A stretch of DNA of 64,000 nt. Origin: Antedon mediterranea (taxonomy: Eukaryota; Animalia; Echinodermata). The position numbers and the translations under genes were made by a program. This document shows, piece by piece, positions 2,067-63,874 of this stretch. The notes beneath the pieces are model-generated. The model was not told where the DNA came from. It made no database searches and was given only the letters and a program-made list of their open reading frames with translations. Where the stretch lies: the NCBI RefSeq assembly GCF_964355755.1, contig NC_092671.1, positions 33,676,304 through 33,740,303 of the forward strand, in the 5' to 3' direction. The number at the start of each line of letters is the position of its first letter. Position 1 is the first letter of the stretch.

Positions 2067-5000
2067 AAGCTCCTTCTCCACCTCATCCACCTGCTGTATG
2101 GAATTATGGAACGACTGAAAGTAAGTCAGATGGTAGTAATAATTAGCATAATCTATTTATAAATGTACGTAAGGGCAAAATTTGGTAAATTGCGCGTTAC
2201 TCCTAAAATGTTTACTCGATGGTATATAAAGTTGGTTCGTACTTTCGGTACTGATTTTAACCACCTGATGTAACACTGTTTACTAATTAAATTGAGTTAA
2301 ATAATTAGTTATTGACATTTTAAACGAATTTAGGTTCAACGGTTTGCCACAAATAGGGGTGTTTTCCGATCGTGGTATACACGGTCTAATGGATGTTCAT
2401 CTTGAAAAATACCCGCACACAATAATAAGAGGATGTTTCGCATTTTCCTATCTCCTTCTACGATAATTGCTTTTAATAGCTGAAAACCAGTTGAACAGCT
2501 CGAGTATAGATTCATAATGTTGCCGATTTTCTTTAAAAAATACTATTTTGATATATTTAATATACGTTTATACAAATGTATTAATTTACGATGAATGGAA
2601 CATTCCAATCTCTGTTACACAAGTGTCTATTCCATCAGGCCTCGTAAAGGAAAGTACACCCATAACAGAAATTCGATCCATTTTTTTTCAATCTGTTTTA
2701 CATCTATATATAAATTTACGTAAGGGCAAAATTCGGTAAATCGCGCCTTACTTCTAGAATTTTTACTCGATGGTATATAAAGTTGGTTCGTACTTTCGGT
2801 ACTGATTTTAACCACCTGATGTAACCCTGTTTACTAATTAAATTAAGTTAGATAATTAGTTATTGACGATTAAAACGAATTTAGGTTCAACGATTTGCCC
2901 CAAATAGGGGTGTTTTCCGATCGTGGTATACACTGTCTAATGGATGTCCATCTTGAAAAATACCCGCCACAAAAATGCGAGGAGGCTTCGCATTTTCCTA
3001 TCTCCTCCTACGATAATTGTTTTTAATAGCTGAAAACCGGTTGAACAGTTCGAGTACAGCATCATAATGTTGAAGACAGGCCGATTTTCTTTAAAAAATA
3101 CTATTTTGATACATTTAATATACGTTTTTACAAATGTATTGATTTGTGATGAATGGAACATTCCAAATTATTTGGTTTAACCATACAGGTATAAATTTAG
3201 ATTTATGGGCCCCCTTGGAGAATAAACATAAATAGTATTGCAATGCTGTACAATACTGTTAAGGTATTAACCACTTTTGATCGCAATTTGAATCGCAAAT
3301 TTCTTACTGTGAGTGTTGGTACTGTTAGATGTAATATAAAAATATATACAAATAAACTTTATTACTGTGAGTGTGGGTAGGCCCTACTGTTAGATTATAA
3401 ACATATAATATACAAATAAATAAACGTTATTACTGACAGTTGCTTCTCAACGTTTGTATTAATTAATAATTTAAAAATATATAAACGTCGTAGTGGTGTA
3501 TCGTTACATGTACTTTACTATTTCAATCGACTATGACAGTGAGAGTTTTAACAAAGTACTGTATTAAATCGTAAATGTTTTACTGTATTTAGTGGTATAT
3601 TATTTATAGGCCTATAAAACATGAAAAACAATATTTCGTTACTGAGTGAATAAGAATATATTTTAAAATGTTTCCTCTTTGTACCTATCTTCTTCCCCCA
3701 TCCCTCAACCCTTAATGTTACATACAAAACACAAATTGGGTTTGTTTAAATGAGTCCAAATAAAAAAATTTGACTCATTTTGTTTCTCTCTCGGAAGTAA
3801 TTCTCAGGGTGCTAATTTTGGTTGACTACATAAATCATTGTGTATATTTATTCGTTTCTGTAAACGACAATGTATTATAGTCCTGCGGTACGTACATTTG
3901 AAATCTCCATTTTCTTCTCGCTGGAAATACTGTGTATTCGAGAACCATCTGTGGGCACGACCTAGATGGTACGCGAGAGAAGCGAGCGTGCCATCTAGTT
4001 ATATAAACATATACAAATAAACATTATTACTTACAGTTACTTCTTAACATTTTTATTAATTAATACTGTAATTTAAAAATATAAACGTCGTACTGCTGTA
4101 TCGTTACATGTACTGTACTATTTCAATCGACTATGACGGTGACAGTTTAAAAAAAGTATTACATCGCAATGTTTTACTGTGTTTAGTGGTATATTATTTG
4201 TAAAACATGAAAACAATTAATATTTCGTTACTAAATGGATGAAGAATATATTTAAAAATTGCACCCATCCTCTTCCCCATCCCTCAACCCTAATGTTACA
4301 TACAAAACACAAATTAAGTTTGTTTAAATTTGACTCAAACAATAATTGGTCTCATTTTGTGATAATTATCGTTTCGGAAGTAATTCCCAGTGTGCTAATT
4401 TTAGTTGTGTACATAAATCACCGTGTCTATTTATTCGTTCCTGTAAACGACATGTATTATTGTCCTGCGGTACGTGTATTGTATTCGAGAACCATTTGTG
4501 GGCACGAAACAACACGATTTATATATACACTAAGGCCCTGTTTCTGCTGCCAAGTAAATACCGTATATTATACGGTATTTTTTGAATACCGTATATATAC
4601 GGTATTTTTTTGGCAGCAGAAACTGCGCTCATAAAATAAATACCGTATTTTGTATACCGTATTTTCCCCACAAAATTTGTGGATAAAATACGGTATTTAC
4701 AAATTTATACCGTATTTTCTGTACCCTTTTCTGTTGCCAATAAAAAATACCGTATTTTTTTTTACCTGTGACATGAGGTCAACATCGTGTTGTGTTTTGA
4801 TTTTTTGTCGCTGCGACAGTTGTTTAACACACGTGCGATAATGTGGACCGAAGAAGTTACCGTTTTTACTATTAATTTGTGGGGGGAAGCGAAACTTTCA
4901 GGAAAACTAATGGGTAATAAAAGAGACAGCACTATTTATAAAGAAATTTCGAACAAAATAAAACAGGAATACAATGTAGATTTGTCTCCGAAGCAAGTGA

Positions 5001-8000
5001 ACACGAAACTTAAAACCCTCCGAAAGCAATACAACATTGCAAAGGACAACAACTCGAAGTCTGGGAGGGACAGAATTACTTGTCCTCATTACGAGGTTTT
5101 GGACCGAATTTTGGGAGATCGGGCCATAGCTGCCCCTCACTATCTAATGGATAGGAACCAGGCAGTAGGAGTTGCCGATGGTATGTACATTTTAATTTAT
5201 AATTAAATAACTAGGCCTATAGCTATATAGCCTACTAATAGACTATTCTATAGTAGTAGGCATTTATAGCCTACCTATTATAGGCCTAGCCTTGGCATGG
5301 ATAAATTAAAAAAGAGGAATCATGCTAAATGTACAGTAACAATATTATTTTCCATGGATTGTGTTAATAAATATAGGAGCTGAGGAAGAACAGCAGCATG
5401 AGGACGGCCCACATGTCGAAGATGTTGATGAAGAGAATGATAGTGTTGGTAAGAATTTACTTATTTTTTCAAGGTTTAATTTAAAAATAATTTTTAGTGA
5501 AGTACGGTATAAATAAATATGCAACCTGATTAACACAGTAGTACTAGATTTGTGTTCAGCAATGGTCATCATGGTTTTTAAAAAGAGCAATATATTGTAG
5601 TTCATTTGACAACAAAATTAATAATAATATTCTACTGAAGTTTAAAATTTTGAAATTAACATTTTTTATAAAATTGTACCAGTGACTGCAGATGATAGCC
5701 AAAATGACGAGGAATCTGACATTGATGATATACCACTACCTGATCAGGATGTTGAAGACGATACTATTCCTGGACAGGCCAATCCTCACCAAGAACAACA
5801 AAGGCTTGCTAGAGAGAATGAAGGTTAGTAAAATAACTAATCTAAACCTAACTTAAGTAAAACAAAACGAAATAGTGGTTAAATTAATCCACTTCCTTAT
5901 ATTAGTTTTCCTAAAGTTGTCTTTTTGTTATAAAGTTAATCTACCCCAATATAAGGAAGAATTAATAATTTCCAACACAAATTGGAACATTGATATATAG
6001 CTTCCAACTCATTTTGGAATTTATTCTGTTTTTTACAATTATTTTCTATAATTTGTTAGGAAATGAGCAGCCCTGTCGAAAGCGAAAAAAAACAAAATTG
6101 CAGGAATCTTTTGAAATGCTTTCAAAAGAGATGGCGAAGCAAGACAGGGAGGAAGAAGAAAGATATATGCGGCACTCTGAAAGATCAGCACAACACCACC
6201 GGGATTGGATGCAACTCATGGCGCGAGAGGCTGAAAGAAACCGACAAAAAGACAGACAGAGAGACCATCAGAGGATGATGCAGATCATGCAGTTATTTGC
6301 ACCACAACAACAACAACCACCGCCACAACCACAACAATACCACCACCACACAATGCATAGACCTACACATCAAAACTACTACCCAACAAACCAACAACAG
6401 TCAGAAAGTCAAGCTCATCATTGTAGAATACCAGCTCGCACTAGTACACCAGCTCGCACTAGTACACCACATTACACTAGTACACCAGCTCGCACTAGTA
6501 CACCAGCTCGCACTAGTACACCACATTACACTAGTACACCAGCTCACACTAGTACACCAGCTCGCACTAGTACACCAGCTCGCACTAGTACACCACATTA
6601 CACTAGTACACCAGCTCCCACTAGCACACCACATTACACTAGTACACCGGCTCCCACTAGTACACCACATTACACCATTACACCAGCTCGCACTAGTACA
6701 CCAGCTCGCACTAGTATACCAGCTCCCACTAGTACACCAGCTCGCACTAGTACACCACATTACACTAGTACACCAGCTCGCACTAGTACACCACATTACA
6801 CTAGTATACCAGCTCCCACTAGTACACCAGCTCGCACTAGTACACCACATTACACTAGTATACCAGCTCCCACTAGTACACCAGCTCGCACTAGTACACC
6901 ACATTACACTAGTATACCAGCTCCCACTAGTACACCAGCTCGCACTAGTACACCACATTACACTAGTACACCGGCTCCCACTCGTACACCAGCTCCCACT
7001 AGTACACCACATCACACTATCAGCAAAGCACCTGAATACTTTATTCTGTAGATTTCATGTTTTTGTTTCCAAACAACTTGTCTTTCCTTCTCAGCAACAT
7101 GTAAATAATGTAAAAAACCACATTTATAATTATATTAGATATTTGTATTTTATTCTGTAGATTTAGATATTGCTTTATTTTAGAAAAAAAACATAGCATG
7201 TTTTATTAGTTATAGCATTAGTAAACCAAAATGCCTTTCACTCTCAACATTGTAAATAAAAACAGTGGTACAGTATTTCATATTACTTAACTCCACTTTA
7301 TATAGTAATATACCTTTACAACTCAAAAAATGCAATAACATCATTATGTGCAATAACACATTCTTGCTTTAACTTATTTCATTCAGGGTTACTTGCTTCC
7401 GTCCAACTCTAAACTTATTTATATAATAATTAGTGTTTTTCAATAAAAAGTAAACATTTTAATGCAATTGGGATTGTCCTGTTTCTTTTTTTTTCTCTTC
7501 ATTTTTGTGTCTTTTAGGACAAGGAATGACCTGGTTTAATATTTTTAAATATATGCATTATTTTTTACAAAACATCAAAAATTGCAGGAAAAGTGTCTTT
7601 AATAATAATGTTTGTATAGAACGGAAAGTAATAATAATTTAATAACAAATAAAATATTTTATTAAATAATGGAAAGTCTATGTCAGGTGGTTAAGTAAAG
7701 CATTCCTAATATCTACAGCACCTGGTTGTGGGTCGTTGTCACCTGCTACATCATTTTCTTGTAATTCTTGTAATTCTGGTAGTATGTCATCATACAAGTC
7801 ATTCTGTTCTATGCAAAAGTTATGCAATATACAACAAGCATTGACCATCAATGGCACCTTGGACACGTGCGAGTCATTCCTACGCATCAGAATGCGCCAT
7901 CTTCCTTTTAGAAGACCAAACGCACGCTTCACAACCATTCTGGCCTTGCTGAGTTTGTAGTTAAATAGCCTGTGCCGTTGGTGTTCATTTCCTCGTTGCG

Positions 8001-11000
8001 GAAAACCCTTCATCAACCATAGAAGTAGCGGATATGATGGATCACCGATAATAAAAATCGGCACTTCCACATTCTCCATGTTAACAGTAGTCTGTTAAAT
8101 ATGTAAAAATAAGAAATAAGGTTTTTATTCTGTAAATTTATTCATGAATAATAATTTAATTTGCATACAACCTCCTCATCAGTCAGTATGCAGACATTTT
8201 CACTGATTTTCTTTTTAAAATGTGATGCTGTTAATAATGTCAGTTTTTAATTATGTTAACTGCTCGGGGATTTATTGTACATAAAACATAATCTGTTTCG
8301 ACCACTAACCCTAGGAAATAGCTGACCGTTTTGACCCTTTTCAAATAATGAAGAGTTCCTAAAAACTCTGGCATCATGTACCTTCCCAGGCCATCCAACA
8401 TATGTGTCTGTGAATCTGAAACCAAAAGGGTTATTACCAAAATAATTACACAATTAACAAATAGACTATGTTTAAAACAAAATACAATACTTGATTTGAT
8501 TAATAAGTTCAATTTTAATTTGAAACATCATAGTTACAAAAAAATGTATTGTTAGCCATGCAATAACACACACAGTACTGTAGTGCCAAGTTACCTTAAT
8601 TTATGATCTACTACTGCTTGTAGTATAACAGAGTAGTGGCCCTTGCGATTGAAGTAGTCAGCTTTTGACTCTTTAGGTGCAAGAATAGGGATGTGTGATC
8701 CGTCAATGGCACCTGCACATTGAGGAAAGCCATGCAGTTCATTGAAGCCTGCTACAGTAGTAGTCAAGCGATCTCCTACTGGCCAAACAATGTAGTCATC
8801 GTACATGAGGTCTACCACTGCCTGACACACTTGCTTTATGGATCTGGAGACAGTAGACCTGTGCACACCAAAGCGATTTCCAATTGTGCGAAGGTCGCAA
8901 CACGTTGAAAGTCTCCAAAGCGTCATGCCAACTACATGCTCTACGGTCATCCCATTACCAAAGTTTGTTGCTTCTCTTTGTAAACTTGGCCGCAGTATTC
9001 CACATAGAACAGTAAAAGTGTCTAAACAAAATTTTAAATAAGTTAATATTGTTTTTTATTTCATAAATCACCATTGTTGTAAGTACTGTAGTTCTCTAGC
9101 CCTTTCACTGATCCCACTAATCAACCAACTGATCATCCTAAACTAATAATAAAGCAACCCATCGTTTACGTAGCACTAGTAGCCACTGTGCAGTGCAGCA
9201 GTAGTAGTACTACTACTGTACCAAAGTAATTTTAGTAAGTAGTAGAAGACTCGGCATAGCCTAGAAAACATTTTTACAGGCTAGGCCTGCCTAAAAGCTA
9301 GTTTATTTATTAATATTTAGTTATGGGGTTAGAGGTTAATCCTCTAGAGCATGAGGCCCGGCCGCGATTTTTTTTTTCGTACATAAGTTGGGGACCCCCT
9401 CATGAAACGTCACAAAATAAACATGAATAATTCATAGTTAAATGTTCTTGTTCCGTGTGCACCCAAGCGTATAGCAACAAGAAGTGATTACACAAGTGCG
9501 GTACAATTCTAGGCCTATCTCCGCGCTGTTGTTGCGGCGTGCGATTTCATAGAAGAATAGCGGCGTTTTGTGTTGATTGTCGAAATAATCAGCCTTTAGT
9601 TTATGATAGTGTTTTTAATATAATTCATTACTAAAGAATTACGTGTTAAAATTATAGTTTCTATTAATACTATTAGGCCTATGCCTAATTATTAGTCTCT
9701 AAACATATGTCTATTCTAGTAGAGCTGTGTGTGTGTGTTATAGGTATGACACAATCCGAGTAATAAGTCAGCAAAATTAAACAATAAACATTACACAAAA
9801 ATACATTTTTTATTCTCGTGGGTCTAATCTAATCTAAACCCATCTCATGTGTTCATATACGCGCATTTTTAAAGTTCCTTTGAGTAGACCTACATGCATT
9901 GTTTGATAATAAAATAGCAGAATTAAAAACAAATACAGTACACAAATTATAAACATTCTTTATTCTTGTGGGTCTAAGCTTTCTTTGGGCTATGTCCAAT
10001 GAATTACTACTTAGTTTAATGTCTTTCCTAGCTGTCGATTAGCCTCGACTCGACACATTTTGTGTGAAGAAGAGTGCGCGAAGGCAATCGCGTAAATTGA
10101 CTTAGAATCCTAGGCCTACTGTAGAAAGTATCGTATCGCAGTTGTGTAATCGCTTCTTGTTGCTATACGCTTGGGTGCACACGGAACAACAAATTTAACT
10201 GATGAATTATTCATGTTTATTTTGTCACGTTTCATGAGGGGGTCCCCAACTTATGTACGAAAAAAAAAATCGCGGCCCGGCCGCCTACTATACTAGCTAG
10301 TACTACGAGTACGTACCCTACTTTACTTGACTTTCAGCCAAATTATTTAAGGCCTCTAATTGTTATAATCAACAATAATAATAAATATAAATAATAATAA
10401 TAATTACCTTTTGACATACGGACATTTTCTTTCCACAAATGGGCGGTGTAACGGTTGCAAACTGTTTCGTTCCACCAGTCTAAAGACACAATTGGGTTAC
10501 GAGGTCGCCTAGCCGCAATCAAAACTACGAAGTTTTTTGTTACGTCTACCATGTTTATCGTCGGGACATGTAACACATGTGAGACATCGAGAGTGGAAAT
10601 TCCTGAGTTACAGTGCGCACGCTCAGTATACTTAGGTCAAACACAGACTTCCTGTTCAAGAATGGCCGCTTGGGTAATAAAGATGAAATTTAACACGACC
10701 ACCCAAGAAGTATTTTTAGCAGAAACGGGGTACTAAAAAATACGGTATAAAAAATACCGTATTTTATACCGTATTTTTATACCGTATTTTGAGCAGTTGC
10801 AGCAGAAACAGGCCCTTACACATACAAAATAAAATTAATTCTTACACCACATAAGATATAACAAGATAATAATCATATTTAAAAACAAATCTCTTTCAGA
10901 TTATGACAGAATTCGTCGACAAGCACGTAAGTAAACTAAACGTTGATTTAACTGTGATAAAACGGCTTAAATATAAATTCGTGTTCATATTTTGTTATTT

Positions 11001-14000
11001 CTTTTGCTTTTTATTTCAGGAACGCCCTCTTGGGATGAAATGATAACTAATAGTAAGTAAAAAAGGTGGATGTCATACAAATATCTATAAAAATTGAAGG
11101 CCTACGGTGATTGTTATTCATATTTTGAAACAACTCTCTTTCAGATTATGACAGAGCTCGTCGATATGCCAGTGAGTAAATTAAAGTTAAGAGCATTATT
11201 TTGATAAAAAAGCATGTAATTAACTATTTGAAACTCTTCATATTTTGCTCTTTGTTTCAGGAACTCGTTATATCTTGAATGAAATCAATCTATAACAGTT
11301 ACTCATATTTTAAAACAAATCTCTTTCAGATTATGACAGATATCGTCGACAAGCACGTAAGTAAACTAAACATTGCTTCAACTGTGATAAAACGGCTTAA
11401 ATATAAATTCATGTTCATATTTTTTATTTATGTATGTATGTGTTTATTTATTTTTTTTATTTATTTTTCTCTTTATTTCAGGAACGCCCTCTTGGGATGA
11501 AATGATAACTAACAGTAAGTAAAAAAGATGGATGTCATACAATTTTCTATAAAAATTGAAAATTAAGTGTGACATAGTTCATATATAATTTTAATGTCAC
11601 CATCAGGATGATCTGGGTATTATGATGACATTTTATTTCTTTCAAAAATACAATCAGCAATAAATCGACATAAATCATGCCTCTTTACCATAAAATACAC
11701 AAACAAGATTAAATAGTTATTAATGCTTGGTTCGACCAAACAACAAGTTCCCAATCAAAACGCAACAGTTTAATTGTCGTTTAATATGTATCGGCTAATT
11801 ATCGATTAATAGTATTATTGGCTGAGGAAACACGGTGTAAACATAAACAGATATATTGATGGAACGTACAGTAAATAATATACAATACACATAATTAAAT
11901 GTAGGCCCGCCGTGATTGTTATTCATATTTTGAAACAACTCTATTTCAGATTATGACAGAGCTCGTCGATATGCACGTGAGTAAATTAAAGTTAAGAGCA
12001 TTATTTTGATAAACAGGCATGTAATTAATTAAACTATTTGAAACTGTTCATATTTTCCGCTTTGTTTCAGGAACTCGTTATATCTGGAATGACATCAATG
12101 ATGACAGTAAGTTACAAAGATGAATGCATTTTGTCAAACTTGATCGTGTTGAATGAATGTATCGATGATTTTACAACCCCAAGCCTTATACATTAATATG
12201 CTACAATCGATTATTTTACAAATACATTTGATTGCATATTGTGTCTTTTTCTTGTCTGCTGGATTTATTGTAGTTGGTAAAATTAACATGAATAAGACAA
12301 GCAACAGAACAAACAACAACGACCCAGAAATAGTTCTATAAAACTGAACAAGTAATGTAGGCCTACTTATAGGTCAAAGAAGTTGAAATTAAAGAAAAGA
12401 TTAAAGCATAATTATAATGATGAATGAAAATATTTATATCCATCTAGTCATTTCAAATTTTACTTGTTTAGTAAATAACGGAGTTTCACGATCATGTTGA
12501 TTAGATATCTTTTTAAAACGTTATACTACCTTGATAAATAAAAATATTCATATTTCTCTAGTAGCTAGATCAACTTTCGTATGCACTTTGAGGTCCAGAG
12601 AATTTGACTTCAGAAATTGGTTTAGGATGGTCAAACAATCATTATAGGCTTGGTTACACATTTTTAAAATGTGGCGAAAGGTCAAAAGGTCAGGGTGAAA
12701 GGTTAACAAACTAAACACCAATAGGTCCTTAAATCTCGACAACCACTGGTCACAGCGAGGTAATTTTGGTCTCAAATTGATCAGAAGGTATACATTTTAG
12801 TCAAAAATTACCGAAAATGCCATTTCTGACCTTTGACCCACAACCCTGGGCATCTATTTATCTCCATAACTACTGGTCGTAGACACTTGAATTTGGTTTT
12901 AAATTGTTCGAAATATATATTTTGTTATTTGTTAAACATTTTTAAAAATGTTACAAAAGGTCAAAGGGTCAGGGTCAAGGGTTATATGAACAAATAAATA
13001 AAGGTATTTGTATCTCGGCAACCACTGGTCGCAGCAAGTCAATTTTGGTTTCAAAATGTTCAGATGGCATACATTTATATTCCGTCTAATGGGGCATTTT
13101 AGTAAAAATGATCAGAAATGCCATTTCTGACCTTTGATCCACAGGGCATCTTCATATCTCTGTAAGTATTGGTCGTAGAAACTTAAATTTGGTATCAAAT
13201 TGTTCGAAATATACATATTTACATTCATTGTAATAGAAAATGTGGTAAAAAGATGAACAAAAAATAATATTACTAATGTTTCAAACAAAAACAAATCTCT
13301 ACTCAACTTATCCTTAAACAGTAATGTTATGCAATAACTGATACTTTAAATTGTTTCAATTTCAAGTACTAGTTATTGCTGTCCACGAGAACATTTTGAT
13401 ATAAACGTCAAGCTCAACAGTTCTTTACAGAATGCTAAAAGTAACTCGCCTTGTGTATCCGATTAAACGCCCCAAGCATTTATTGTTCAAAAGGGTTTTT
13501 AGGGGGAGGGGATGCATATTTATTTGGGGTATAATATTGTAACATGTATAATCAAATAAATACCACCTAGATGTATAAAACTACAGCACAATTAATATCA
13601 AAAAATGATAAAATTATGTCAAAATGCTTGGTAAATTGTAGATTATGGTAGTTAATGTGATACAATTATTTTGTAAATGCATGTGGCTGATCGTTTATCC
13701 CACATGGTGTCCTATTGGAGGAAATGGTGGCGTTTATTTGAGGGAGGCTTTTATCCAAAGCGGGTGTTAATTCGAATAAATACTCGAGCTCAACAGTTAA
13801 AAATGCTAGAAGTAACTTACCATAGTTAAACGGGCATTTATTTATTCAGGGAAGGCGTTTATTTTGTTTGGGTGTAGTAATGGTAACATGTATAATCAAA
13901 TAAATACACCCAAGATAAAAAAAAATAAATATAATAAGAATAATAACTGGATTAAACCTCATTCTATCCTTGTGCAAGTACAATCATGTAATAAAAGGTA

Positions 14001-15205: not shown

Positions 15206-15490
15206 ATTTGCCTTTGAGGAAAACAGTTCGTAAACCAATGTAACGGTTGTTATTTCAGTTCTGTCAATTTTGTGTAATAGTCTAATATTTGACAACCAAT
15301 TAAAAGTTTCTGTTACTGAATGTATCATACCATAGGCCTAGTTGTTTTATATTTGTTGTTGGTGTTGAAAGTCATATCAATTTTATATCTTGCAAAAAAA
15401 GGGACATAATAATTATAATAATAAAGAAGAATATCGGTATGGAAAAAAATGTACTGTATAAAACAGATTAAAACAGAATTCCAAATGAGA

Positions 15491-26976: not shown

Positions 26977-27416
26977 GATGGTTAATCGAACGTCAGTTTA
27001 TTACGAATGGTTCATGTATCGAATTTATACACTATTTTATATCTAAACTGATGCAATAATAATAATAATAATAATATATATATGCATATTCCTAATAGAA
27101 TAAACAGACGGCTGACATTAAAAAAATGTAAACAAAACTATAAAAATCTATTTATCTAGAGTATTTTACGATGTTCATTATTGTTGTTATTCGAATACCA
27201 TTAAGTAAAACAATGTTTATACTTTTAAATATATTTAGTTTAAGTGTGCTTATTGTTTTTACATGGTGTATGAAATAATAATGAAACTAACTGACACTTG
27301 CTGTAAGAAAAATGTTCCAAGCCATTCTTTGGAGAAATTGAGGATTTGTATTAAAATTGAATAGCTATCATCATAATATTAATAAAGTTAATGAGAAAAT
27401 TAACCATTTTTGATCC

Positions 27417-33337: not shown

Positions 33338-33385
<48 letters not shown>

Positions 33386-38806: not shown

Positions 38807-38859
<53 letters not shown>

Positions 38860-40339: not shown

Positions 40340-40452
40340 GGCTTGTTCATGGAATACGGGAAATATCTACGTTCTGGCTCAATATTCCAATAAGCCGAAT
40401 GGATTATGGAACCAGGACGTAGATATTTCCCGTATTTCGTAAGAACAAGCAT
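40340..40452. repeat. Long imperfect hairpin, probably the end of a non-autonomous DNA element
   Basis: AATACGGGAAATATCTACGTTCTGG ... CCAGGACGTAGATATTTCCCGTATT. Confidence 0.6.
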
Positions 40453-41330: not shown

Positions 41331-41339
41331 TATATAAAA
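41331..41339 (+). promoter_or_regulatory. Candidate TATA box of gene A2
   Basis: TATATAAAA about 75 nt upstream of the A2 ATG. AT-rich background weakens the call. Confidence 0.35.
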
Positions 41340-41406
41340 CTGAATCACCAATTTATTTTATTAAAAGCTGATGTCAAAAACTTCGTACTGCAGCGTTCCT
41401 ATTATT

Positions 41407-44400: not shown

Positions 44401-45082
44401 ATTTATTAATATACAATACATATTTATAATATAAACACTAAATAAATTAATACACGTTATGCCAGGATTTACAACATCATCTATTACTAGTATATAAATT
44501 TACGTAAGGGCAAAATTCGGTAAATCGCGCGTTACTTCTAGAATCTTTACTCGATGGTATATAAAGTTGGTTCGACTTTCGGTACTGCTTTTAACCACCC
44601 GATGTAACACTTTTTACTAATTAAATTGAGTTAGATAATTAGTTATTGACAATTAAAATGAATTTAGGTTCAAAGATTTGCAACAAATACGGTATAGGTG
44701 TTTTCCGATCGTGTTATACACTGTCTAATGATGTCCATCTTAAAATTACCCTCACACACAATAATACGAGAATGCTTCGTATTTACCTATATTTTTCTAC
44801 GATAATTGTTTTTAATAACAAACAGCTCGAGTACAGCATCATAATGTTACATTTATTCTTTAAAAATACTATTTTGATAGATTTAATTTTTTTTTTAAAT
44901 TTTGTAGTTTATACAAATGTATTGATTTGCGATGAATGGAACATTCAAATATCTCAGTCTCAATATAATTATTTGGTTTAACACAAGTAGGTAAATTCAT
45001 GGGTCTAAGGATAAACTTGAAACCTTTAGATATAGTATTGCAATAGAATCGCAAATTTCTTACTGTGAGTGTGGGTACTGTT

Positions 45083-45160
<78 letters not shown>

Positions 45161-51045: not shown

Positions 51046-53449
51046 ATTGGCCTTTTGGGGAAAACAGTTCGTAAACGAATGTAACGGTTGTTATTATATA
51101 TAAAGATGCACTATCTAAGATCGTTTCTTATTTCAGTTCTGTCAATTTTGTGTAATAGTCTACTATTTGACAACCAATTAAATGTTTCTGTTACTGAATG
51201 TATCATACCATAGTTGTTTTATATTTGTTGTTGGTGTTGAAAGTCATATCAATTTTATATCTTGCAAAAAAAGAGACATAATAATTATAATAATAAAGAA
51301 GAATATCGGTATAGAAAATGTACTGTATAAAACAGATTAAAACAGAATTCCAAATGAACCTAAGTAGTCAGGTGGCACTTTTTGTGAGAAATTCCTAATA
51401 ATAGAATTGTTAAAAAAACAGACCAACACCATTGTAATGCTTTAATAATACAAGATTAGGCATCTCCTGAGACTAAACAATATATTGGCTAACATAATGC
51501 TATTACGTTATACAGCCCTACCGTAAATAAAAGCGGTAGCATATTCGAGGTAGGGTATTTTCGGTAATTGGTTCTTTAGGCATAGTTTATTCCTCTTGAT
51601 GATCGTGATGGAGGTGATACTGAGCTGTCTGGTGTAGATATGGATGGATTAGGTACGATGACAAAAGCAGCAGTACAAATAATAATATAGGCCTACGTTA
51701 ATAGAATTTTTTAATTTCAAACGTAATGCAGAATATCAATAATTAGACGGACGTTTTTTCTTTCCAGGACGCATTATATTTTTTTTTCTATCCAATTAAG
51801 AGAGAAATCATGAATAATTCATTACCTTAATTATTTTCTATGCAAACTTAAAACTCAGCTATCCGGATTTCACTCGAAAAATGTCTTATCATCAAATCTC
51901 CCTATGTAATTTTATAATACTATTCCCCACAATATATTCTGATTCTTTATGGCGTATATTTAATTTGATTTTTATTAATTTGCAGTATAATTTCTATTAT
52001 TTAACCACTGTACCTTCACACACGCGCGCGGTATGTTTAAAATAAACAAAAAACTGAAATGGCTATGAATAATGGCAAACTTAAGCTCCAGTCCTACTAT
52101 CTGATTTTTTTTCGTCTTCCAAAGGAACACTGTATTGATTGATGGAAAGTGCCTGTTTCCAGTCACCTTTAGGATCAAATCTATTATTTTAACTGCTCCC
52201 TTGTGTATAAAAGAGAGAAAATATTTGAAACCAGGTTGTTGCAAGGTGAACTTATCTTAAACCCGGAAGTTACTTTGACCGGGAAGAATTGAAATTGAGA
52301 TGAAAATCTAATGTTGAAATCATAAATTTTGTTAAAAAACTTTTTATAATATCTTCCTAAGATAGAAATATGGAACAATAGCGTCGATGTGAACACTAAT
52401 GTTATCAAATCTACGTTTCGCGGTACATCTCAGATAGATAAGGTAGGTATCCAAGGCGGAGATTTGTACCAAAGTTTTTGCATTGTGCTCGCCTATGTCA
52501 GAATTAACCATACTTTATATATAGATGCAAAAGAATTAAAGATAGCTGGCCTACTTCCTAAATATACTGAACCTAACCCCCTAAATAATCTCTCTCAACT
52601 ATTAAAAAAAACATGTTCTTGAAAGAACTCGAACTGAGGGCTTCAGTGTAATATGTTAAAGTATTTACTACTATAGACCAAACATTTCGGTTGACAAACG
52701 CTGTTTACACAAACTATTTAATCTCTATACATGCTTATATAGTGCCCCTATAATGCTCCATATTTTGTCATAATTATTCTAATAAATTATTCATGATTTC
52801 TGGCTTAATTGGATTGAAAAAAAATAATGTCTCCAGGACCCTTGTGATACAACAATGGTAATGGTAATGGTTTTTGTCACGTCCCTAGACAACTTGTCAG
52901 TCAATCTCCACTGCATTTTTTTGTTTCTGTTTTAGTCTACTGTCTTGTAGTATTTACTCTTTCCTGAGTAGACTATACTTGCTTATCATCGGACTCGTCC
53001 TTATAGTGGTTCATTACTTCTGGAAAAACACGCTTGTTTGACAGCAATGGGATATATCTATATCGACGTTCCCGTTGTTGTAAAACAAGCGTTGATATTT
53101 TCATCGTCAATTTTCCCTTCAAAAAGGTTTAACATGGAGTTATTATTCATTTCATTGTTTAATATTTATATAATAGACAAAAGGACAACAGCATAACATG
53201 TTCATAATTATTTTTAACAATCCATTTTGTTTAAATCAGTATTTGCATAAAGTAACTCTACAGTGTTTATAGGCTACGGGACATTAATTAACATTCAAAT
53301 TAATAAAAACAGTACGTTTTAAAACCTTTCAAACAGGTGAATACTTAATAAAAGTCCCAAATACCGAATTAAAAAATTATCTAAGTCACCAAAACGATTA
53401 TAAATGCGACAGGTTACAGGACTTGTTTCCACGAAGACCGTAGTCTGGT

Positions 53450-56400
53450 TTAGTTTACTCCTTTAGGAGGTAGGCCTACTGAAAGAAAATGGAAATTGTT
53501 TTAAAAGTTAATATCATTTTAACATGCGTATACAATATCAACTATAATAACTACGTTATGCGAAATCTTATTCCCATGTGATATTATGTTGTTTGCACTG
53601 TTATGCCTTATACAAATTACATGATAGGCCTGATTGTCATTATAAACAACACCATTAATAGGATTATTACTGATTAAATCGCTTTACACACAATATTGTA
53701 TTTTAAGATATTTTTAGGATGCACTTCTTTAATTTTGTTTCCTGTTTTCAAATGATATATTATCAGCATTCAATCAGAAACAGATACATTTGGCTTCTTG
53801 TTAAAAGGCATTGATATAATATGAAATGATATTTTTTATTGTTATAAGGGGATATTAGGGATTACCGGGAAAAAAAGTTGAGCAGGGTTCAATTATAACA
53901 AACGCTGGTTTGCAACGAAGGCGTACTGCCATACCTCGGGTAGGTTTATTATTTGGTTCAATTATTCCAGACGCTGGTTTGCAACGAAGGCGTACTGTCA
54001 TACCTCGGATAGGTTTATTACTGGGTTCAATTATACCAAACGCTGGTTTCCAACGACGGCTTACTGCCATACCTCGGGTAGGTTTATTATTGGGTTCAAT
54101 ATACCAACGCTGGTTTGCAACGAAGGCGTACTGCCATACCTCGGGTAAGTTTATTATTGGGTTCAATTATACCAACCGCTGATTTGCAACGAAGGCGTAC
54201 TGCTATACCTTGGGTAGGTTTATTATTGGGTTCAATTATACCAAACGCTGGTTTGCAACGAAGGCGTACTGCCATACCTCGGGTAGATTTATTATTGGGT
54301 TCAATTAAACCAAACGCTGGTTTGTGACGAAGGCGTACTGCATACCTCAGGTAGGTTTGTTATTGGGTTCAATTATACCAAACGCTGGTTTGTGACGAAG
54401 GCGTACTGCCATACCTCGGGTAGGATTATTATCTATATATAAATTTACGTAAGGGAAAAATTCGGTAAACCGCGCCTTACTTCTAGAATTTTTACTCGAT
54501 GGTATATAAAGTTGGTTCGTACTTTCGGTACTGATTTTAACAACCTGATGTAACCCTGTATACTAATTAAATTAAGTTAGATAATTAGTTATTGACGATT
54601 AAAACGATTTGCCCCAAATAGGGGTGTTTTCTGATCGTGGTATAAACTGTCTAATGGATGTCCATCTTGAAAAATACTCGCCACAAAAATGCGAGGAGGC
54701 TTCGCATTTTCCTATCTCCTCCTACGATAATTGTTTTTAATAGCTGAAAACCAGTTGAACAGCTAGAGTGCAGCATCATAATGTTGAAGACAGGCCGATT
54801 TTCTTTAAAAAATACTATTTTGATAGATTTAATATACGATTATACAAATGTATTGATTTGCGATGAATGGAACGTCCCAATCTCTCAGTCTGCCAGAGTT
54901 TGGTTTAACACAAGTAGGTAAATTTATGAGCCCTTGGTTTAACACATACGGTAGATAAATATATGGGCCCTTTGAGAATAAACTTGCAATACTTTGACAA
55001 TACTGTAAATACCTATTAACTATTTTTGGTCCTCATTTGAATCGAGCATTTCCTAAATGCTCATACTATTAGATGTAATATAAAAATATATACAAATAAA
55101 CTTTATTACTGAGATTGTGGATAGGCTCTACTGTTAGATATACAACTTTATACTGACAGTTCCTTCTCAACGTTTGTATTAATTAATAATTACCAAAAAT
55201 AAAACGTCGTAGTGGTGTATCGTGACATGTACTTTAATATTTCAATCGAATATGAAAGTGACAGTTTTAACAAAGTATTAAATCGCAAATGTTTTACTGT
55301 ATTTAGAGGTATATTATTTATAGGCCCAAAAAACATGAAAAAATATTTCGTTACTGAGTGGATAAAGAATATATTTAAAAATTGTTCCTCTTTGTACCTA
55401 TCCGTTTTCCCATCCCTCAAACCTAATGTTACATACAAAACACAAATTGGGTTCTTTAAATGAGTCAAAATAAAAAATTTGGACTCATTTTGTGATAAGT
55501 TTCTCCTTCGGAAGTAATTCCCAGTGTGCTAATTTTAGTTGACTACATAAATCATCGTGTCTATTTATTCGTTTCTGTAAACGACAATGTATTATATAAT
55601 AGTACATTTGAAATCGCCAGTTTTGCTACGCGGAAATTACTGTGTATTCGAGAACCATCTGTGGGCACGACCTAGATGGTACGCGAGCGAAGCGAGCGTA
55701 CCATCTAGTTGGGTTCAATTATACCAAACGCTGGTTTGTGACGAAGGCGTACTGCCATACCTCGGGTAGGTTTATTATTGGGTTCAATTATATCTAACGC
55801 TGGTTTGCAACGAAGGCGTACTGCCATACCTCGGGTAGGTTTTTTATTGGGATTTTAATTTGACTTATTGTACAGTTGTAACTTACCTTCAGTGTTTATT
55901 TTCTTAGGAGGTCCTGAAACAATTAAACAAAAACATAGGAACATTTTGAAATTGATATTCATGTTAACATTTGGATAAGTTATTAGGTTTGCAGGTTTGG
56001 TTATCAAATGCTATCTACTTTTTAACTGGTTTATTATCCCGACGATCTGTTTTATAATCTGAAAAGGAATCAGTAATTAAGTATTTTACATTAGTATTGA
56101 TTGTAGTTGAACATGGTGCATACGACTTTCATAATTACGGTTGAATTGTGTTTTGGCTTTTTAAAAAAAATTTAGATATTTTGATTTATGTAACATATCC
56201 TTTTAAGAGTTTCTTCTATCTTGTGGACATATTTCAGTTTGGTTTTTATTACTTACTTTCAGCGTTTATTTCGATAATAGAAGACTCTGTAACAAAGATT
56301 AGAAGGAAACATGAAGAATACATTGTCATTTTCAACATTAATTATCAAATCCCCTTTTATTTCAACATCTAGAAGGATATTTTGGATTAAAAAAGAAGTT

Positions 56401-59400
56401 ATCAACCTTTTCCTAATACAGGATGTGCGAATACGGGATGATCGATACACACAATTGGTGCTGACCAGGGTTCAATTAGACAAAAGGCTGATTAGCGCTG
56501 AGGGCGTATCCATACTTCGTTTCGGTGTAGGTTTTTTTCTCACACGTCTGTAGAGCGCTTAGATGTTTCACGACATCAAAGAAATTAGCATGCATTAAAC
56601 TTTTAGAATGTTAAAGCGGCAGAAGAAAACTATAAAATGTGCATACTTATTTCCCCACATGTAAGTAAGGTCGTAATATTGATTACGCCTATAATTATAA
56701 AATACTAGAGGGTGAGCTCGCTTCGCTTGCTCCCCCTCTAGAGGAAGTGTAGACGATGGTTTTCGGAATAATATGGAATGACACGGGTAAACATGTTTTA
56801 AAAGGACGTTCTCCTTGTACGTTTTCTGTCGGTTACCATTATTGAAAATGCTTGACAGATCGTAAAACTAAACCTGTCTTAGATGATTAATAATATTTTA
56901 AAGTGTAGTGTTTATTGTTTGGTAGGGCCATTATAGGTTGGAGGTGTGGAGGCGGAGATCATTTTTTAGGTAGGTGCATATTCGAGGGATATGTTTAATT
57001 TTGTGTTTTAATAATATGGTAACATTATTTTATAATCAAATAAAATCCTCTAATAGATATGAAAAGTGGTAAAAAGAATAACAGATGCTTGGTAAATTGT
57101 AGATAACAGTGAGATGAATTCTACTACAAAAAGTATAATTGTGTTATTATAAATATAATACTTTATTGTTGTGTATTATAAATGAGGATATGCGTTTATT
57201 ATTCAAATTGATTTTTTTAGGAGACGCGTTTATTCAAATAAATACCGTCCTACTAATTAATACTTTATTTAATTTAAACATCTTTTGAAATTAACTTCTG
57301 CGACAAAGTGGGCCGTTTCAGCCCAGGAAAGAAGACATTTTAGACATCCTGGTACTAACGGGACACAGATAGCTTACAGTTATTCCTGCCAGCTTACTCA
57401 ATAAAACTCGGCTATCGGGATTTCACTCGATTTAAAAAAAATCAAATCTCCCTATGTAAACTATTAATACTATTCCCCAAAATATATTTCGATGCTTTAT
57501 GGCGTATATTTAATTTTATCTTTATCAATTTGCAGTATAATTTTTATTTTTTAACTACTGTACCTTCGCACGCGTGGTCCGGTCCTAAAATAAACAAAAA
57601 CATCTAAAATGGCTATAGCCTATGACTATATAACGACCAACTTAGTTGAAACCAGGTTGTTGCAAAGTGAACTCATTGTGAACCCGGAAATTACTTTGAC
57701 CACGTAGAATTTAAATTGAGTTGAAAATCTACCGTTGAAATCATAAATTTTGTTAAAAAACTCTTTATAATATGTTTCTAAGATAGAAATATGGAACAAT
57801 ATCGTAATAGTAAAATCCATTGTTGTCAAATTTAGATTTCAAGGTACATCTGAGATAGATCAGGTAGGCATCCAAGGCAGAGATTTGTACCGAAGTTTTT
57901 TTTATGCTCGTCTAATTTATGTCAGAATTAACCATAATTTATATATAGATTATGATTATTAAAATAATAAAATAGAATAATATAGTATACTCTCACCTTC
58001 TTCACCTCGACGAACTCTGTCATGAACTGAAATAACATAACATATTAAAAATGGGTGATTGATAGCAAGGAATATTGCATTAAAACATTGAATGTTAGTG
58101 TTTGTGTTAAACAGAGGTGAAGTTTATGCTTAAGATTGATTCCATTGTGTTTTTGAATTCATTATTCACTGTGTAAACGTAATATGTGGTCCCCTACCGG
58201 TATCGTTTATATTATAGTAATGTGTATTAAATTTGCGAATAAATATAATTATTACTGTACATTGAACATAAAAAGAAATATATAATACATAATTATATTA
58301 CATGGTATTAAAATGTTGAAAATCATAAATTATCAAAGCAATGATTATCCGCTATCATCGTATTTATTTTATTTTATGAATACTGTTATTCCATTATGAG
58401 GTTCTGAAACAGATCAGACAAAAGGCATGAACACTTTGAAATTTATATTCATGTAACAGATAAGTTGATGTTTGTAACCGTGTTTATCAAAATGTGTTAT
58501 CTACATCTAGTTTAGGTCAACATCTTGAAGGTTTTGTTTAATCCAAAAAGCAATTCACCAAAGTAGCCTACTAATGTAAGAATGTATGCCTATGGTTATA
58601 ATGAACATGGTACACAGACAATGCAAATGGTTGTATTTTTGTTCGAATTAAGTTCACGTACCGTGCGGTACGGTAATTAGTTCTACCTAACAGAAAAGTG
58701 ACGATGCGTAAAGATAATAAATTTAATGATAAAGTGATGATAATTAATGTTTCTAATTTGTCTCGTGTCGTCTCTATATAAATTTCTTTCTGAAGGAAGG
58801 CAGACGGCAGGTAGGCCTAGTTTGAATTATACACAAAATATCTAGGCCTAGGCCCATATTGAAGAAATAATTCAGAGTAGGTGTTAAACTTCTTCTATCG
58901 GTTGCATTAAATATAGGTACACTTTTGTTATTTATTCTAACTAAACATCTACAATGGCCAACGTGGAAAACAAAGAGCCAAATATTTCTAATTTAAATAT
59001 TAGCGCCGCTGAACCGAACACCTGGCTGTCGACTCTCATCAAGTCAATCATGGGCTGCAAAACCATTGCTGATATTATATCTACATTATGCGACGCAGTC
59101 ACCAAGATTGTCTCCTTGGAAAAAGACATTACCACCCTCAATCTTGAAATCACCGGTTTACAAAAAGAACTGAGGAATTTGCACGCCGATATGCAGGAAA
59201 ATTCTGATTTCATGGATGTTAAGCTGAAGGATATTGCCGAGGATACGCAGCAATCCACTACGGAATGCATAGAAGAGATACGTGACAAAATTGACAACCT
59301 AGAAGGACGTCAACGCCGTAACAATCTGATGTTTACTGGCATACCCGAACAAGCGGAGGATAGTGAAGGTACTGTTAATTTCCTTTCCTCATTTATCTCC

Positions 59401-62400
59401 AATACCACCGGCATCAAAATCGCTAATGATGATATACAACGAGCCCATCGAGTTGGACCACGTAATACCACCAGGGATAAACCGAGACCACTTGTTGCAT
59501 ACTTTCTCAGATATTCTACTAAAGAAAGAGTACGCAAGGCAGCTCCAAAAGTGAGACCTAAATTTAAAGATAATAACATCTACGTAAATAATGATTTTAT
59601 CAGCAAAGTGATAAGTAGAAGAAAGGCATTATACTCATCGATGAAATACCTGCATTCCAACAAAGTAAAGGCCTGGCTCCACCTTGACAAATTGCGTTAC
59701 ATAGATGCAAATGGTTATGTTCGCACATTCATCGACATGGATCATCTTGCCAAATACTACCCGAACCTCAAGGAAGCACATGCCCCCGTAGCTACTGAGT
59801 AATTCTAGTCGTCGCAATAATTTAACTTTACTTTGACTCTACTTACCGTCAACCGAAATATTACCTATAATATATTTTTATTTCAAGAATTGTTTATTTT
59901 GCTTCTCATTAATTATGTATTAATGTATACAGTCTCATGCATGCTTATTGCTGTATTTCTTTTTTAGATAACGCTATACGCAGCTATTGTTAATGAATGT
60001 TAATTATCTTCACTTACTTCCTTTTTATGACTTTAATGTGAACTCTGAACTTACTAACAACAATGATATTTCTAACATAACCTTTAATCCAGTTAATTAC
60101 AATGAAAATGAAAAATATGATGAATCTTTTGATCAACTAATTAATAATCTCAATTCACAGTCGGTTACCCTAGATGAATGCAGCTTTTATGATTATTCAC
60201 AATTTAATTCTAAGTTTAATACATCCTTTAATACTAAACTATCTCTCCTGCATCTTAATATTAGAAGTATTACGCATAAAGTTAATGATCTCGAATGCCT
60301 TTTGAATTCAATTAATAACAAATTTTCCATAATCGGTATCAGTGAAACATGGCTTAATGAAAACTCCCCTATTCCTTTCATTAATAATTACTCCTTCTTT
60401 GCAAGCAATAGAAGCAATAATCAAATTGGCAGAGGAGTTGCATTTTTTATACGTAATGATATTAGCATTACAATTCGAAATGACTTAAAATTACCAGACG
60501 ACCTTTCCGAATCACTTTTTGTTGAGATTGAAAATTCAAAGACAAAAAATGATATTATAGGCATTATTTACAGAGCCCCCTGTGGAGGGCTAGATTATTT
60601 TACTAAATCCGTCGATAATGTATTAACCCAAATTAACAATGAAAACAAAAATTGTCATCTCATGGGAGACTTCAATATTGATTTATTGAAATTCCATAAC
60701 CATAAATTAACAAACACCTACCTAAATACCTTAATTTCCCATTTTTTTTCCAACTATTTCAAAACCAACTAGGATTACCTCAACTTCGGCCACCTTGATT
60801 GATCATTTTTATTCCAAACAATCTAACTATAAAATAGTTGCTGGTGTTTTACTTAATGATATCTCCGACCACCTTCCTATATTTCAGTTCATTGATCAAG
60901 AAATTAATGATCAAAACCTTGATGATAATAGCGCCAACTATTCATTTCGTATAAACGACCTAAATGCCTTATCGATTGATTTAGAAGGTGAAGACTGGTC
61001 TATGATATTTGATTGTGACCCAAGATTGAGTTTTGATATATTTATTGAAAAATTTACAAATATCCACTCCAGACACTTGGTTAAAAGTAGTATAAAATCA
61101 AATAAAACGTTTAAACAACCATGGATGTCATCTGCTCTCTTAAAATGTAGTTCTCGGAAACATAAACTTTATAACAAATATATGCACACACGTAGTAATA
61201 ATGACAAATTAAACTATACAAAATATAATAATATTTTCACTAATCTTTGTCGCACTGCTAAAAAGAATTATTATACTTCCCAGTTTGATAGATATAAAGG
61301 TAATCTGAAGAACACATGGCTTGTAATAAATTCTGTTTTAAATAAAGGTAATAATAATAACAAGCACCCGAATCTAATTAAAGACGGTGATAATATTTAC
61401 AAAACTCAAAAAGAGATATGTGAATCGTTTAACAACTATTTTTCTACAATTGGTCCTAATCTTATTAATAGTATGCCAACTAATATAACTGATCCATTAT
61501 CTTATCTTCATTCTGCGTTTGCCAACTCATTTTATATTAGCCCAGTTTCAATTGATGATGTTAACCTAACTATATACAATCTAAATTCTAATAAAGGGTC
61601 TGGATCTGACGGTATTACTGCTCGTGTCTTAAAATCTGTATCTCCCTTAATCATCAACCAACTTACCCATTGTATAAATTCATCTTTTTTATCTGGCACT
61701 TTTCCAACACACTTAAAACTAGCTAAAGTTGTGCCCATTTTCAAGAAAGGTGAACGAAGTCAATTATCTAATTACCGGCCAATATCACTACTTTCAGTGT
61801 TTTCCAAAATTATTGAAAAACTCATGTATTCTAAACTTTCTGATTATCTCACAAAATTTGATATACTTAATAAACGCCAATATGGTTTTCGAAAAAATCA
61901 CTCTACATCCCATGCCGTTTTAGATCTTATTAATAATATTACAAATTCATTTGAATCAAAAGAAAATTTATTAAGTTTATTTATTGATCTTTCAAAGGCC
62001 TTCGATGTTATTAATCACAATAATTTAATTAAAAAACTTGAGTGCTATGGAATTAGAGGTATTTCATTGAATTGGTTTAATAGTTATTTGAAAGATAGAA
62101 AACAATATGTTGCATTAGGATCTTGTACATCGTCGACGATGGATATTACTTGCGGAGTGCCACAGGGATATGTGCTTGGGCCATTGCTCTTCCTTATTTA
62201 TGTTAATGATCTGGCTAATGTCAGTAACAAATTGCAAGTAATATCCTTCGCCGACGACACCACCTTATTTTACTCTAATTCCAATATTGATTTATTATTT
62301 ACTACATTCAATGATGAATTAACAAAATTTTGGGACTGGTTTATTTCAAACAAATTACTTATTAATACTCTTAAAACAAATTATTAAATTTTTCACAATT

Positions 62401-63874
62401 CTCAACGTAAACTAAAAGTTGATGACCTAAATATACTTCTTGGCGGAATTCAAATTGAACGCAAAACTGAAACACTTTTTTTAGGTGTATATATTCATGA
62501 AAACCTCAAATGGACCAGTCATCAAAATTACGTTTCGAAAAAAATATCAAGATCTATTAGTATTATTAACAGACTTAAGCACTTCTTCCCTCTAAATATT
62601 TTTAATTTCTCTTTATAACACACTTGTACTTCCTTATTTCTAGTATTGTAACATTATTTGGGCTGCAGATTACTCTTCTAATATTGCTAGATTAACTAAA
62701 TTACAAAAACGTGCAGCTAGAATTATTACTTTTTCACCATATAGAACCTCATCTGAACCCCTTTTTAAACGTCTTGGTATATTAAAATTAACGGATATCC
62801 ACAATGTTCAAGTTGCCAGTTTTATGTTTAATTATTTTAAAAACCAACTTCCTATTTCTATGATTGATATGCTCTGTAAACGTACCAAATTTCACAATTA
62901 CAATTTAAGAACTTCTCATTTAAACATTCCTTTTGCTAGACTTACAAAAACTAAATTTTTTATAACTATATCAGGTCCTAATTTGTGGAATCATATCCCA
63001 CCAAATATCAAAACGTCAATATCATTATTTACTTTCCGAAAAAAGTTAAAGAATCATTATATATCTAAATATTATACTGCTTAGTTAATATGCTTATTAT
63101 CATTATTTATACTCATATACTATTTATGTCTTACACAAAATATTAGTTGTTGTTTATTATTGCAATCTTTAATCTATACTATATATAATGTATATAGTAT
63201 ATACTATATATATACTGGAATTATAATTTATGTATACATATTTTTTTTTTTCATTTACCAATATCGGTAGTTATTTCATTTATAATTATCATGAAACTAT
63301 TGAAATATAATTTAAATAATTTTTATAAAGAAGATGTTAGTTATGTTATTATACTGTAATTTTTTATCCTAAATTATATAATTATATATTCTAGGTTATT
63401 TTTATTTTTTTAGTAATGTGTTTTGTTATGGGTCCCTACGAGACAAGTTTTTAACTTCTAGAAGGGATCTATGATAATAATGACTACCAATTACTGCTTT
63501 ATCTATGTTCACTTTAATATCTTTTTTCTATTTTGTATATATTCATTCATTATTATCTAAATAAATATTATCTGAATCTGAATCTGAATACCGTTTGAGC
63601 TAAGTCGACGTTCACAGTATAATTACAGTTCCTACGCATAAATACCTATCGTCAGAATCATCCCCGATGATGATAGAATTGATTTAGAAATATTGATTGC
63701 TTGCACCATGACGTGCATTCGATAACGTTTGTAAAGCTCTTTCTTCAATCTACACTATCAAACTAGTTTGACAAAGGAAGTTTTTTTTACAAATTATACT
63801 GCTTGTTATGCATATTTTTTTTAAATTTTTAAACTTACCTTCAGCGTTTAATCCATATCTTTTAGCAGCAGGTT
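53450..63874 (-). CDS. Gene B2, paralog of B1, 3' five exons only: 63874-63839, 58026-57997, 56286-56257, 55913-55887, 53478-53450. Possibly a pseudogene
   Basis: Exons and splice sites are intact (..PAAKRYGLNAEVHDRVRRGEEESSIIEINAERPPKKINTEVGLPPKGVN*). At ~63957 the sequence jumps to the equivalent of ~28080, skipping the region that holds B1 exons 1-2. Confidence 0.65.
53884..55852. repeat. Paralogous 69-bp satellite (~10 units) split by a Helitron
   Basis: Same unit at 53884-54431 and 55709-55852. Confidence 0.93.
54432..55708 (+). mobile_element. Non-autonomous Helitron, family 1, complete (1277 bp), inserted in the 69-bp satellite
   Basis: Starts TC, ends CTAG, and sits between A and T of the satellite unit (ttatta|ttgggttc) with no TSD. 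3' hairpin CTAGATGGTACGC..GCGTACCATCTAG. Confidence 0.92.
58954..59802 (+). CDS. LINE ORF1 protein (coiled coil plus L1-ORF1/RRM-like region), 282 aa
   Basis: IDNLEGRQRRNNLMFTGIPE, IQRAHRVG, PRPLVAYF and IYVNNDF motifs. Confidence 0.88.
   Translation: MANVENKEPNISNLNISAAEPNTWLSTLIKSIMGCKTIADIISTLCDAVTKIVSLEKDITTLNLEITGLQKELRNLHADMQENSDFMDVKLKDIAEDTQQSTTECIEEIRDKIDNLEGRQRRNNLMFTGIPEQAEDSEGTVNFLSSFISNTTGIKIANDDIQRAHRVGPRNTTRDKPRPLVAYFLRYSTKERVRKAAPKVRPKFKDNNIYVNNDFISKVISRRKALYSSMKYLHSNKVKAWLHLDKLRYIDANGYVRTFIDMDHLAKYYPNLKEAHAPVATE
59987..63084 (+). pseudogene. LINE ORF2 (AP endonuclease plus reverse transcriptase), disrupted
   Basis: HLNIRS, ISETWL, MGDFNID, SDHLP (endonuclease); NYRPISLL, QYGFR, FIDLSKAFD, GVPQGYVLGP, FADDT (RT). 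Split by frameshifts or stops near 60750, 62385 and 62600-62645. Confidence 0.92.

Follow-up and report, generated by a model that had tools for sequence, protein, structure and literature searches.

A feather-star family of micro-exon genes with predicted secreted, furin-type-cut peptide precursors

The micro-exon genes (MEGs) of schistosomes, as described in the available part of PMC10526429, encode a signal peptide and are built of short exons, mostly multiples of three, spread through long introns; each has 10–20 exons, ranging from 6 to 81 nt with a majority of 15 nt, and the genes lie in clusters formed by duplication, with transposons nearby. A second point of reference is the Drosophila antifungal Baramicin A and apidaecin, whose tandem peptides are spaced by RXRR according to the accessible portion of PMC8423362, which also reports duplication of the BaraA locus. 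Here we describe five loci in a 64,000-nt stretch of the genome of the feather star Antedon mediterranea (NC_092671.1, forward-strand positions 33,676,304–33,740,303; hereafter the window, within which all positions are counted from 1). A reading made from the sequence alone had proposed that this DNA holds a hidden cluster of five micro-exon genes encoding secreted, convertase-processed precursors of several peptides. By sequence comparison the loci, two of type A, two of type B and one of type C, resemble furin-processed tandem precursors in layout and schistosome MEGs in gene build, and appear homologous to neither. The interpretation we favour, with somewhat more confidence than doubt, is that they form one feather-star family of micro-exon genes, likely encoding secreted precursors cut by furin-type convertases, with peptides that probably serve the body surface or defence.

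The features shared with MEGs, so far as the source text at hand describes these, are the signal peptide, short symmetric exons, long introns, clustering by duplication and nearby transposons. The feather-star exons differ in measuring 27–57 nt, against a MEG majority of 15 nt, and in numbering 7–11, against 10–20; dedicated convertase-site exons and a free-living deuterostome host set the family further apart, and exon skipping, documented in MEGs, whose central exons are alternatively spliced, is only hinted at here. No homology to MEGs was found, an Antedon record being the sole relative in protein searches and Pfam returning no match. With Baramicin A and bee apidaecin, in the available description, the family shares a signal peptide and tandem related peptides between RXRR sites, but its predicted peptides are neutral to acidic and each module is a separate micro-exon; for type C, the one type searched, no match to either appeared in protein, Pfam or PDB searches. 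Crinoid neuropeptide precursors (SALMFamide, AN peptide and PCNP1-20), in the part of PMC9793003 available, come from the same animal group and likewise follow a signal peptide with several short peptides set apart by basic sites. However, the SALMFamide genes described there carry several peptides per exon behind phase-0 introns, whereas the present family uses RxRR, lacks an amidation glycine and gives each module its own phase-1 exon. The neuropeptide layout invoked by the sequence-only reading is thus a weak comparison, which holds for the signal and basic sites but not for amidation glycines or for the allotment of one module to an exon. None of the PCNP peptides described in the available part of that paper matches the feather-star peptides, and our peptide and DNA motifs are absent from the text of seven of its supplements, long cells being represented by 400 characters.

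Gene models and exon architecture

The window is AT-rich (GC 27–39%) and repeat-laden. A splice-site scan of both strands, combined with a start-exon search and context patterns, placed A1 and A2 on the plus strand and B1, B2 and C on the minus strand. The window takes in the whole of A2, B1 and C, whereas its edges cut A1 and B2. The claim of five genes with one architecture therefore stands for five loci, with the ATG and signal exons of A1 and B2 falling outside the window. All five are, in our assessment, real genes.

Type C (30944–39598, minus strand; complete, 130 aa) provides the firmest comparison. Its ten exons are the ATG exon 39598–39585, the signal exon 38235–38150, internal exons 37842–37804, 37090–37058, 36851–36807, 36128–36096, 35890–35846, 32915–32886 and 32687–32631, and the terminal exon 30954–30944; glycine-rich payload exons alternate with three RIRR linker exons. 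The translation is identical over 130/130 residues to RefSeq XP_071943192.1 (P0121), listed as an uncharacterized protein, isoform X2, of A. mediterranea, with the first nine exons supplying residues 1–127 and exon 30954–30944 the last three. This record was reached with a profile of the glycine-rich C exons, for which it was the one protein matched among 1702 word-sharing candidates and the single match among 1.84 billion representatives. The agreement bears out the gene model, and it also means that the cluster was not wholly hidden: C was already annotated, without function, and no database protein for A or B turned up among 299 search candidates. Recovery of ten exons of 11–86 coding nt without homologues suggests that transcripts may support the RefSeq record.

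A second isoform, X1 (XP_071943191.1), shares residues 1–107 with X2 and then diverges into a tail with three additional blocks, one of the RIRR type, for which no encoding exons were found in the 64-kb window. The tail blocks resemble a B linker exon and a possible C exon that X2 skips, and the tail may derive from another haplotype or from an additional C-like paralogue beyond the window; given such an origin outside the C locus, X1 would be either a product of cross-paralogue splicing or an annotation chimera. The skipped candidate exon (31549–31511, minus strand; 39 nt, GC donor) has 5/12 residues identical to one block of the X1 tail, and a second possible exon (31745–31728, minus strand; 18 nt, weak AAG acceptor) is likewise absent from X2. 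These two window exons, together with the divergence of the two isoforms past residue 107, are the hints of splice variation. An earlier ending of C, composed of the 18-nt exon, the GC-donor exon and a stop at 30904, was displaced by the ending that matches RefSeq.

A and B are supported by their splice sites, their homology to C and a weak signal of purifying selection. A2 (41407–51045, plus strand; complete, 114 aa) comprises the ATG exon 41407–41420, the signal exon 44186–44229, internal exons 47030–47083, 47477–47503, 49083–49115, 49551–49577, 49736–49762, 49882–49914, 50345–50371 and 50465–50500, and the terminal exon 51023–51045. Its paralogue A1 (2067–15205, plus strand; 5' end beyond the window), modelled from splice sites and homology, comprises exons 2067–2120, 10900–10926, 11020–11052, 11145–11171, 11330–11356, 11482–11514, 11950–11976 and 12071–12106 and the terminal exon 15183–15205; four of its exons are RxRR linkers. 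Poly(A) signals lie 215–247 nt downstream of the stop in the two A genes, that of A1 being an AATAAA at 215 nt. B1 (20286–26976, minus strand; complete, 80 aa) has signal and linker exons homologous to those of A and C, and consists of the ATG exon 26976–26960, with TATAAA about 50 nt upstream, the signal exon 26522–26449, internal exons 26308–26273, 25184–25155 (RVRR), 23558–23529 and 23184–23158, and the terminal exon 20314–20286. B2 (53450–63874, minus strand; 5' end beyond the window) retains exons 63874–63839, 58026–57997, 56286–56257 and 55913–55887 and the terminal exon 53478–53450. A 21-nt candidate at 24741–24721 was discarded, as it lies within a repeat that recurs at 51945–52066, and start exons of 44 nt for B1 and 20 nt for C gave way to the shorter, homologous ATG exons of 14–17 nt.

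The exons placed by the sequence-only reading were confirmed with canonical splice sites, and all models are free of internal stops. Its description of a 14–17 nt ATG exon in phase 2 followed by a signal exon running from phase 2 to phase 1 agrees with the measured lengths in A2, C and B1 (14, 14 and 17 nt for the ATG exons; 44, 86 and 74 nt for the signal exons), and the signal exons are hydrophobic, with a best 11-residue hydropathy of 3.4–3.7. Every internal exon (31/31) is a multiple of three in phase 1, as claimed; the length range is 27–57 nt rather than 18–57 nt, the 18-nt case being the weak-acceptor exon missing from the RefSeq protein. Introns span 92–8779 nt. The basic site is placed on a separate linker exon of 27–33 nt, which mostly alternates with payload exons, and the anticipated combination of a signal peptide with repeated R-x-R-R sites is borne out (four sites in A, three in C, and one plus a KR in B). 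With phase 1 used throughout, the gain, loss or skipping of an exon leaves the reading frame intact.

Of the 24 distinct internal exons, those with a stop number 0 when read in phase 1, 22 when read in phase 2 and 11 when read in phase 0; those with an RxRR motif number 8, 2 and 0, respectively. Under a strict splice score the window contains 22 candidates of 15–60 nt, of which 20 are symmetric, 19 open in phase 1 and five furnished with RxRR or KR; across 40 order-4 Markov nulls, the same four counts have means of 4.0, 1.45, 0.8 and 0 and maxima of 11, 4, 3 and 0. The splice matrices were set by hand after the exons had been viewed, and the real count of 19 is raised by duplicated copies, as it represents 14 distinct peptides; the margin over the nulls stays large despite both.

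Cutting the five models at RxRR gives 13 predicted downstream pieces of 5–31 aa, mostly 16–31 aa, the two 5-aa pieces arising only when a truncated A exon, described below, is skipped. The pieces contain no cysteine, none of the 13 has a glycine before the basic site, and they begin with QA or YA in A and with DG in C. The precursors, of 80–130 aa, have no cysteine beyond the signal region. In a single-sequence AlphaFold model, C has one confident N-terminal helix, which covers the signal region, and a pLDDT below 50 at residues 40–130; since the run was made without an alignment, this is weak evidence that C may be disordered outside the helix. The proposal that the peptides belong to no known family held up in every collection searched: Pfam gave no family for P0121 (XP_071943192.1), P0122 or the C signal exon, the PDB gave no relative of C (best E 0.65), the best ESM Atlas scores (0.79 and 0.76) are at chance level, and protein searches returned no characterised match. 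The literature searched, which excluded most subscription journals and bioRxiv supplements, yielded no paper on the family, its exon logic or the predicted peptides.

Duplication, exon turnover and selection

The three gene types of the sequence-only reading can be told apart, but they are homologous and constitute one family. The A2 and C ATG exons are identical at 13/14 nt, the signal exons of A, B and C have a common core, and the RxRR exons of all three align, acceptors included. R-x-R-R is constant across the diverged types, and its middle and flanking residues vary. The segment with A1 and B1 and that with A2 and B2 are two copies, offset by 33–45 kb and approximately 85–96% alike in aligned blocks; C occupies the space between the copies in head-to-head orientation with A2, the two start codons being 1.8 kb apart. 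Growth by exon duplication, as had been supposed, agrees with these comparisons, by which the family has expanded through tandem duplication of linker-plus-payload exon pairs and through duplication of the 33–45 kb A+B segment. In the interval 39598–41407 the start exons of C and A2 point away from each other, raising the possibility of a shared promoter, and the acceptor-like sites preceding both (donor candidate 39777) suggest upstream untranslated exons.

Exons have also been lost. A truncated payload exon in A1 (11261–11297, plus strand) keeps a strong acceptor, has lost its donor at a duplication joint and contains an in-frame stop; its A2 counterpart (49667–49703, plus strand) differs by two changes, both non-synonymous. 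These exons are probably skipped; if they were read to the next donor, the protein would end early. In C, a dead linker copy (38053–38082, minus strand) has CAC at its acceptor and has lost the RxRR motif. An orphan RIRR linker-type exon with a weak donor (41023–41049, plus strand), upstream of the A2 start codon, may be a remnant or a 5' untranslated exon. Both B copies contain a degenerate, 76–77% alike copy of the region of B exon 23184–23158 (25549–25672 and 58386–58504), probably a dead exon.

The 14 pairs of paralogous exons, 439 nt in all, differ by 14 substitutions and by no indel. With junction codons excluded, six synonymous changes on 90 sites stand against six non-synonymous on 303 (dN/dS 0.30, p=0.034). 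Divergence is 3.2% in exons against 9.4% in flanks (p=4e-6; 27/28 flanks, several of which cross non-homologous joints). Purifying selection on A and B is thus suggested, not strongly.

Several observations weigh against the interpretation we favour. Firstly, with the comparison restricted to the 20 flanks that align cleanly, the contrast becomes 3.2% against 4.9% (p=0.15; indels p=0.08). Secondly, a search for sequencing runs that cover 49000–53600 listed none of RNA, a result that says nothing on expression itself; reads of three runs on 23150–32250, one mainly over repeats and two over all 30 bins, behave as DNA, and among the 15 listed of their 77 read joints no intron match was found. Thirdly, XP_071943192.1 is a computed record, perhaps made from the same assembly, and a search with X1 returned only X2 among 299 candidates, with no database protein for A or B. 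Lastly, the predicted pieces carry a net charge of 0 to -3, unlike classical cationic antimicrobial peptides, and the earlier comparison with these fails; their acidic charge speaks against a killing action of the cationic kind on membranes.

Several of these points, namely that neither RNA nor a database record was found for A or B and that the strict conservation test is not significant, also speak for only C being active, with A and B decaying duplicates or mis-modelled, as do the recent transposon insertions in their introns and the truncated exons with stops inside A. We regard this as very improbable: canonical splice sites and open frames are retained in all modelled exons, the dN/dS ratio is that given above, and the TATA-like box of B1 and the poly(A) signals of A1 and A2 are in place.

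Peptide processing and candidate roles

The specificity of furin and related convertases for R-x-R-R is established, and peptide ends can be trimmed by exopeptidases. On the interpretation we favour, the precursors would enter the secretory pathway and lose their signal peptide, a furin-type convertase would cut after R-x-R-R, and a carboxypeptidase would trim the basic residues to leave cysteine-free peptides of 16–31 aa, those of A having X-Ala N-termini (QA, YA) that dipeptidyl peptidases would remove. The weakest step is the last, and we offer it tentatively, at rather less than even confidence: the products may be a fast-turnover set of effectors of the epidermis or of immunity rather than conserved neuropeptides. 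Recent duplication, exon turnover, the lack of distant relatives and furin-type sites without amidation make a role at the surface or in immunity likelier, in our view, than that of a classical neuropeptide, and recent duplication with no relatives among the representatives searched fits a lineage-specific effector family. Toxin-like peptide precursors have reportedly been described in another crinoid, Anneissia japonica, with repeated peptides, RxxR sites and a diversity that arises by duplication and splicing; should that report hold and the precursors prove homologous, the present family would join them.

The same genes and processing could instead yield signals, namely crinoid-specific neuropeptides, hormones, or egg-derived sperm-activating or spawning cues. 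A signal peptide, repeated short peptides between basic sites and the one KR site in B are in keeping with this, short, acidic, unstructured peptides would suit receptor ligands, and the glycine-rich C payloads recall the speract-type egg peptides of sea urchins, which come from multi-copy precursors. We nevertheless hold it to be rather unlikely, because glycine precedes the basic site in none of the 13 predicted pieces, because the sites are RxRR whereas dibasic sites define the crinoid candidates, and because, within the available part of PMC9793003, neither the PCNP peptides nor the supplement motifs match and SALMFamide genes have multi-peptide exons and phase-0 introns.

The glycine- and proline-rich low-complexity repeats, the want of a fold past the signal helix and a weak feature likeness to plant glycine-rich proteins in ESM Atlas (the 0.79 score, under the chance bar) could also point to secreted proteins that remain intact or in large fragments and function as disordered components of mucus, adhesives or matrix, for example in pinnule mucus or in larval or embryo attachment, with the arginine motifs structural. 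This is improbable in our judgement: R-x-R-R is kept across three gene types while neighbouring residues vary, and precursors of 80–130 aa offer no cysteine outside the signal region for cross-linking.

A bolder extension of the favoured interpretation is that convertase-site and payload exons serve as phase-1 cassettes that can replace one another, and that combinatorial splicing joins them, within single genes and even between tandem paralogues, into a diverse repertoire of secreted effectors, as an exon-level peptide construction kit. Cross-paralogue splicing would be implied by the chimeric-looking isoform X1. We consider such a kit unlikely; if real, it would be a deuterostome counterpart of schistosome MEGs with proteolytic processing built in. 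If exon skipping proves true, the micro-exon strategy of parasitic schistosomes would extend to a free-living deuterostome. The family in any case illustrates how a peptide library may grow through duplication of frame-neutral linker and payload exons, and it furnishes actual peptide sequences with which to study the chemical defence or signalling of crinoids, a subject that has received little attention at the peptide level. Such genes escape both open reading frame (ORF) calling and homology search, and similar clusters may therefore be overlooked elsewhere.

Transposons, repeats and tRNA-like units

The introns and spacers of the locus hold numerous mobile elements. A Harbinger-type DNA transposon with terminal inverted repeats (4533–10816, no strand assigned; Myb/SANT ORF on the plus strand, DDE_Tnp_4-like ORF on the minus strand) occupies an A1 intron and is absent from A2. 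The spliced exons of its Myb/SANT gene end in a repeat of 18 nt that codes for a long Thr/Pro-rich tract (6420–7020), and its transposase is broken by a nested element with inverted ends near 9345–10292. The last A1 intron contains an element with inverted ends of about 240 nt (12556–15133), likewise absent from A2. A long interspersed nuclear element (LINE) at 58790–63590 (plus strand, ends approximate), with ORF1, an endonuclease-like ORF, RVT_1 and broken frames, lies in a B2 intron and is absent from B1; a LINE protein search gave matches of only about 40%. Between A1 and B1, a DNA element with inverted ends (15490–19870) encloses a nested element, also with inverted ends (16777–18601); the outer element is absent between A2 and B2.

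The last intron of both B genes carries a minisatellite of 68–69 nt, in about 35 units in B1 (20700–23110) and about eight in B2 (53880–54430), where an inserted repeat then interrupts it; each unit presents a donor-like GAG/GTATGG on the strand of the gene. A C intron (33375–35584) contains a 367-nt unit with a tRNA-Thr(TGT)-like gene, in six nearly identical tRNA copies, two inverted relative to the other four and with TA runs at the bounds; the array either arose by very recent amplification, both tandem and inverted, or is an artefact of the assembly. Two A2 introns (45329–45400 and 47205–47276) contain a tRNA-derived repeat resembling a short interspersed nuclear element, called as tRNA-Asp with an ATC anticodon.

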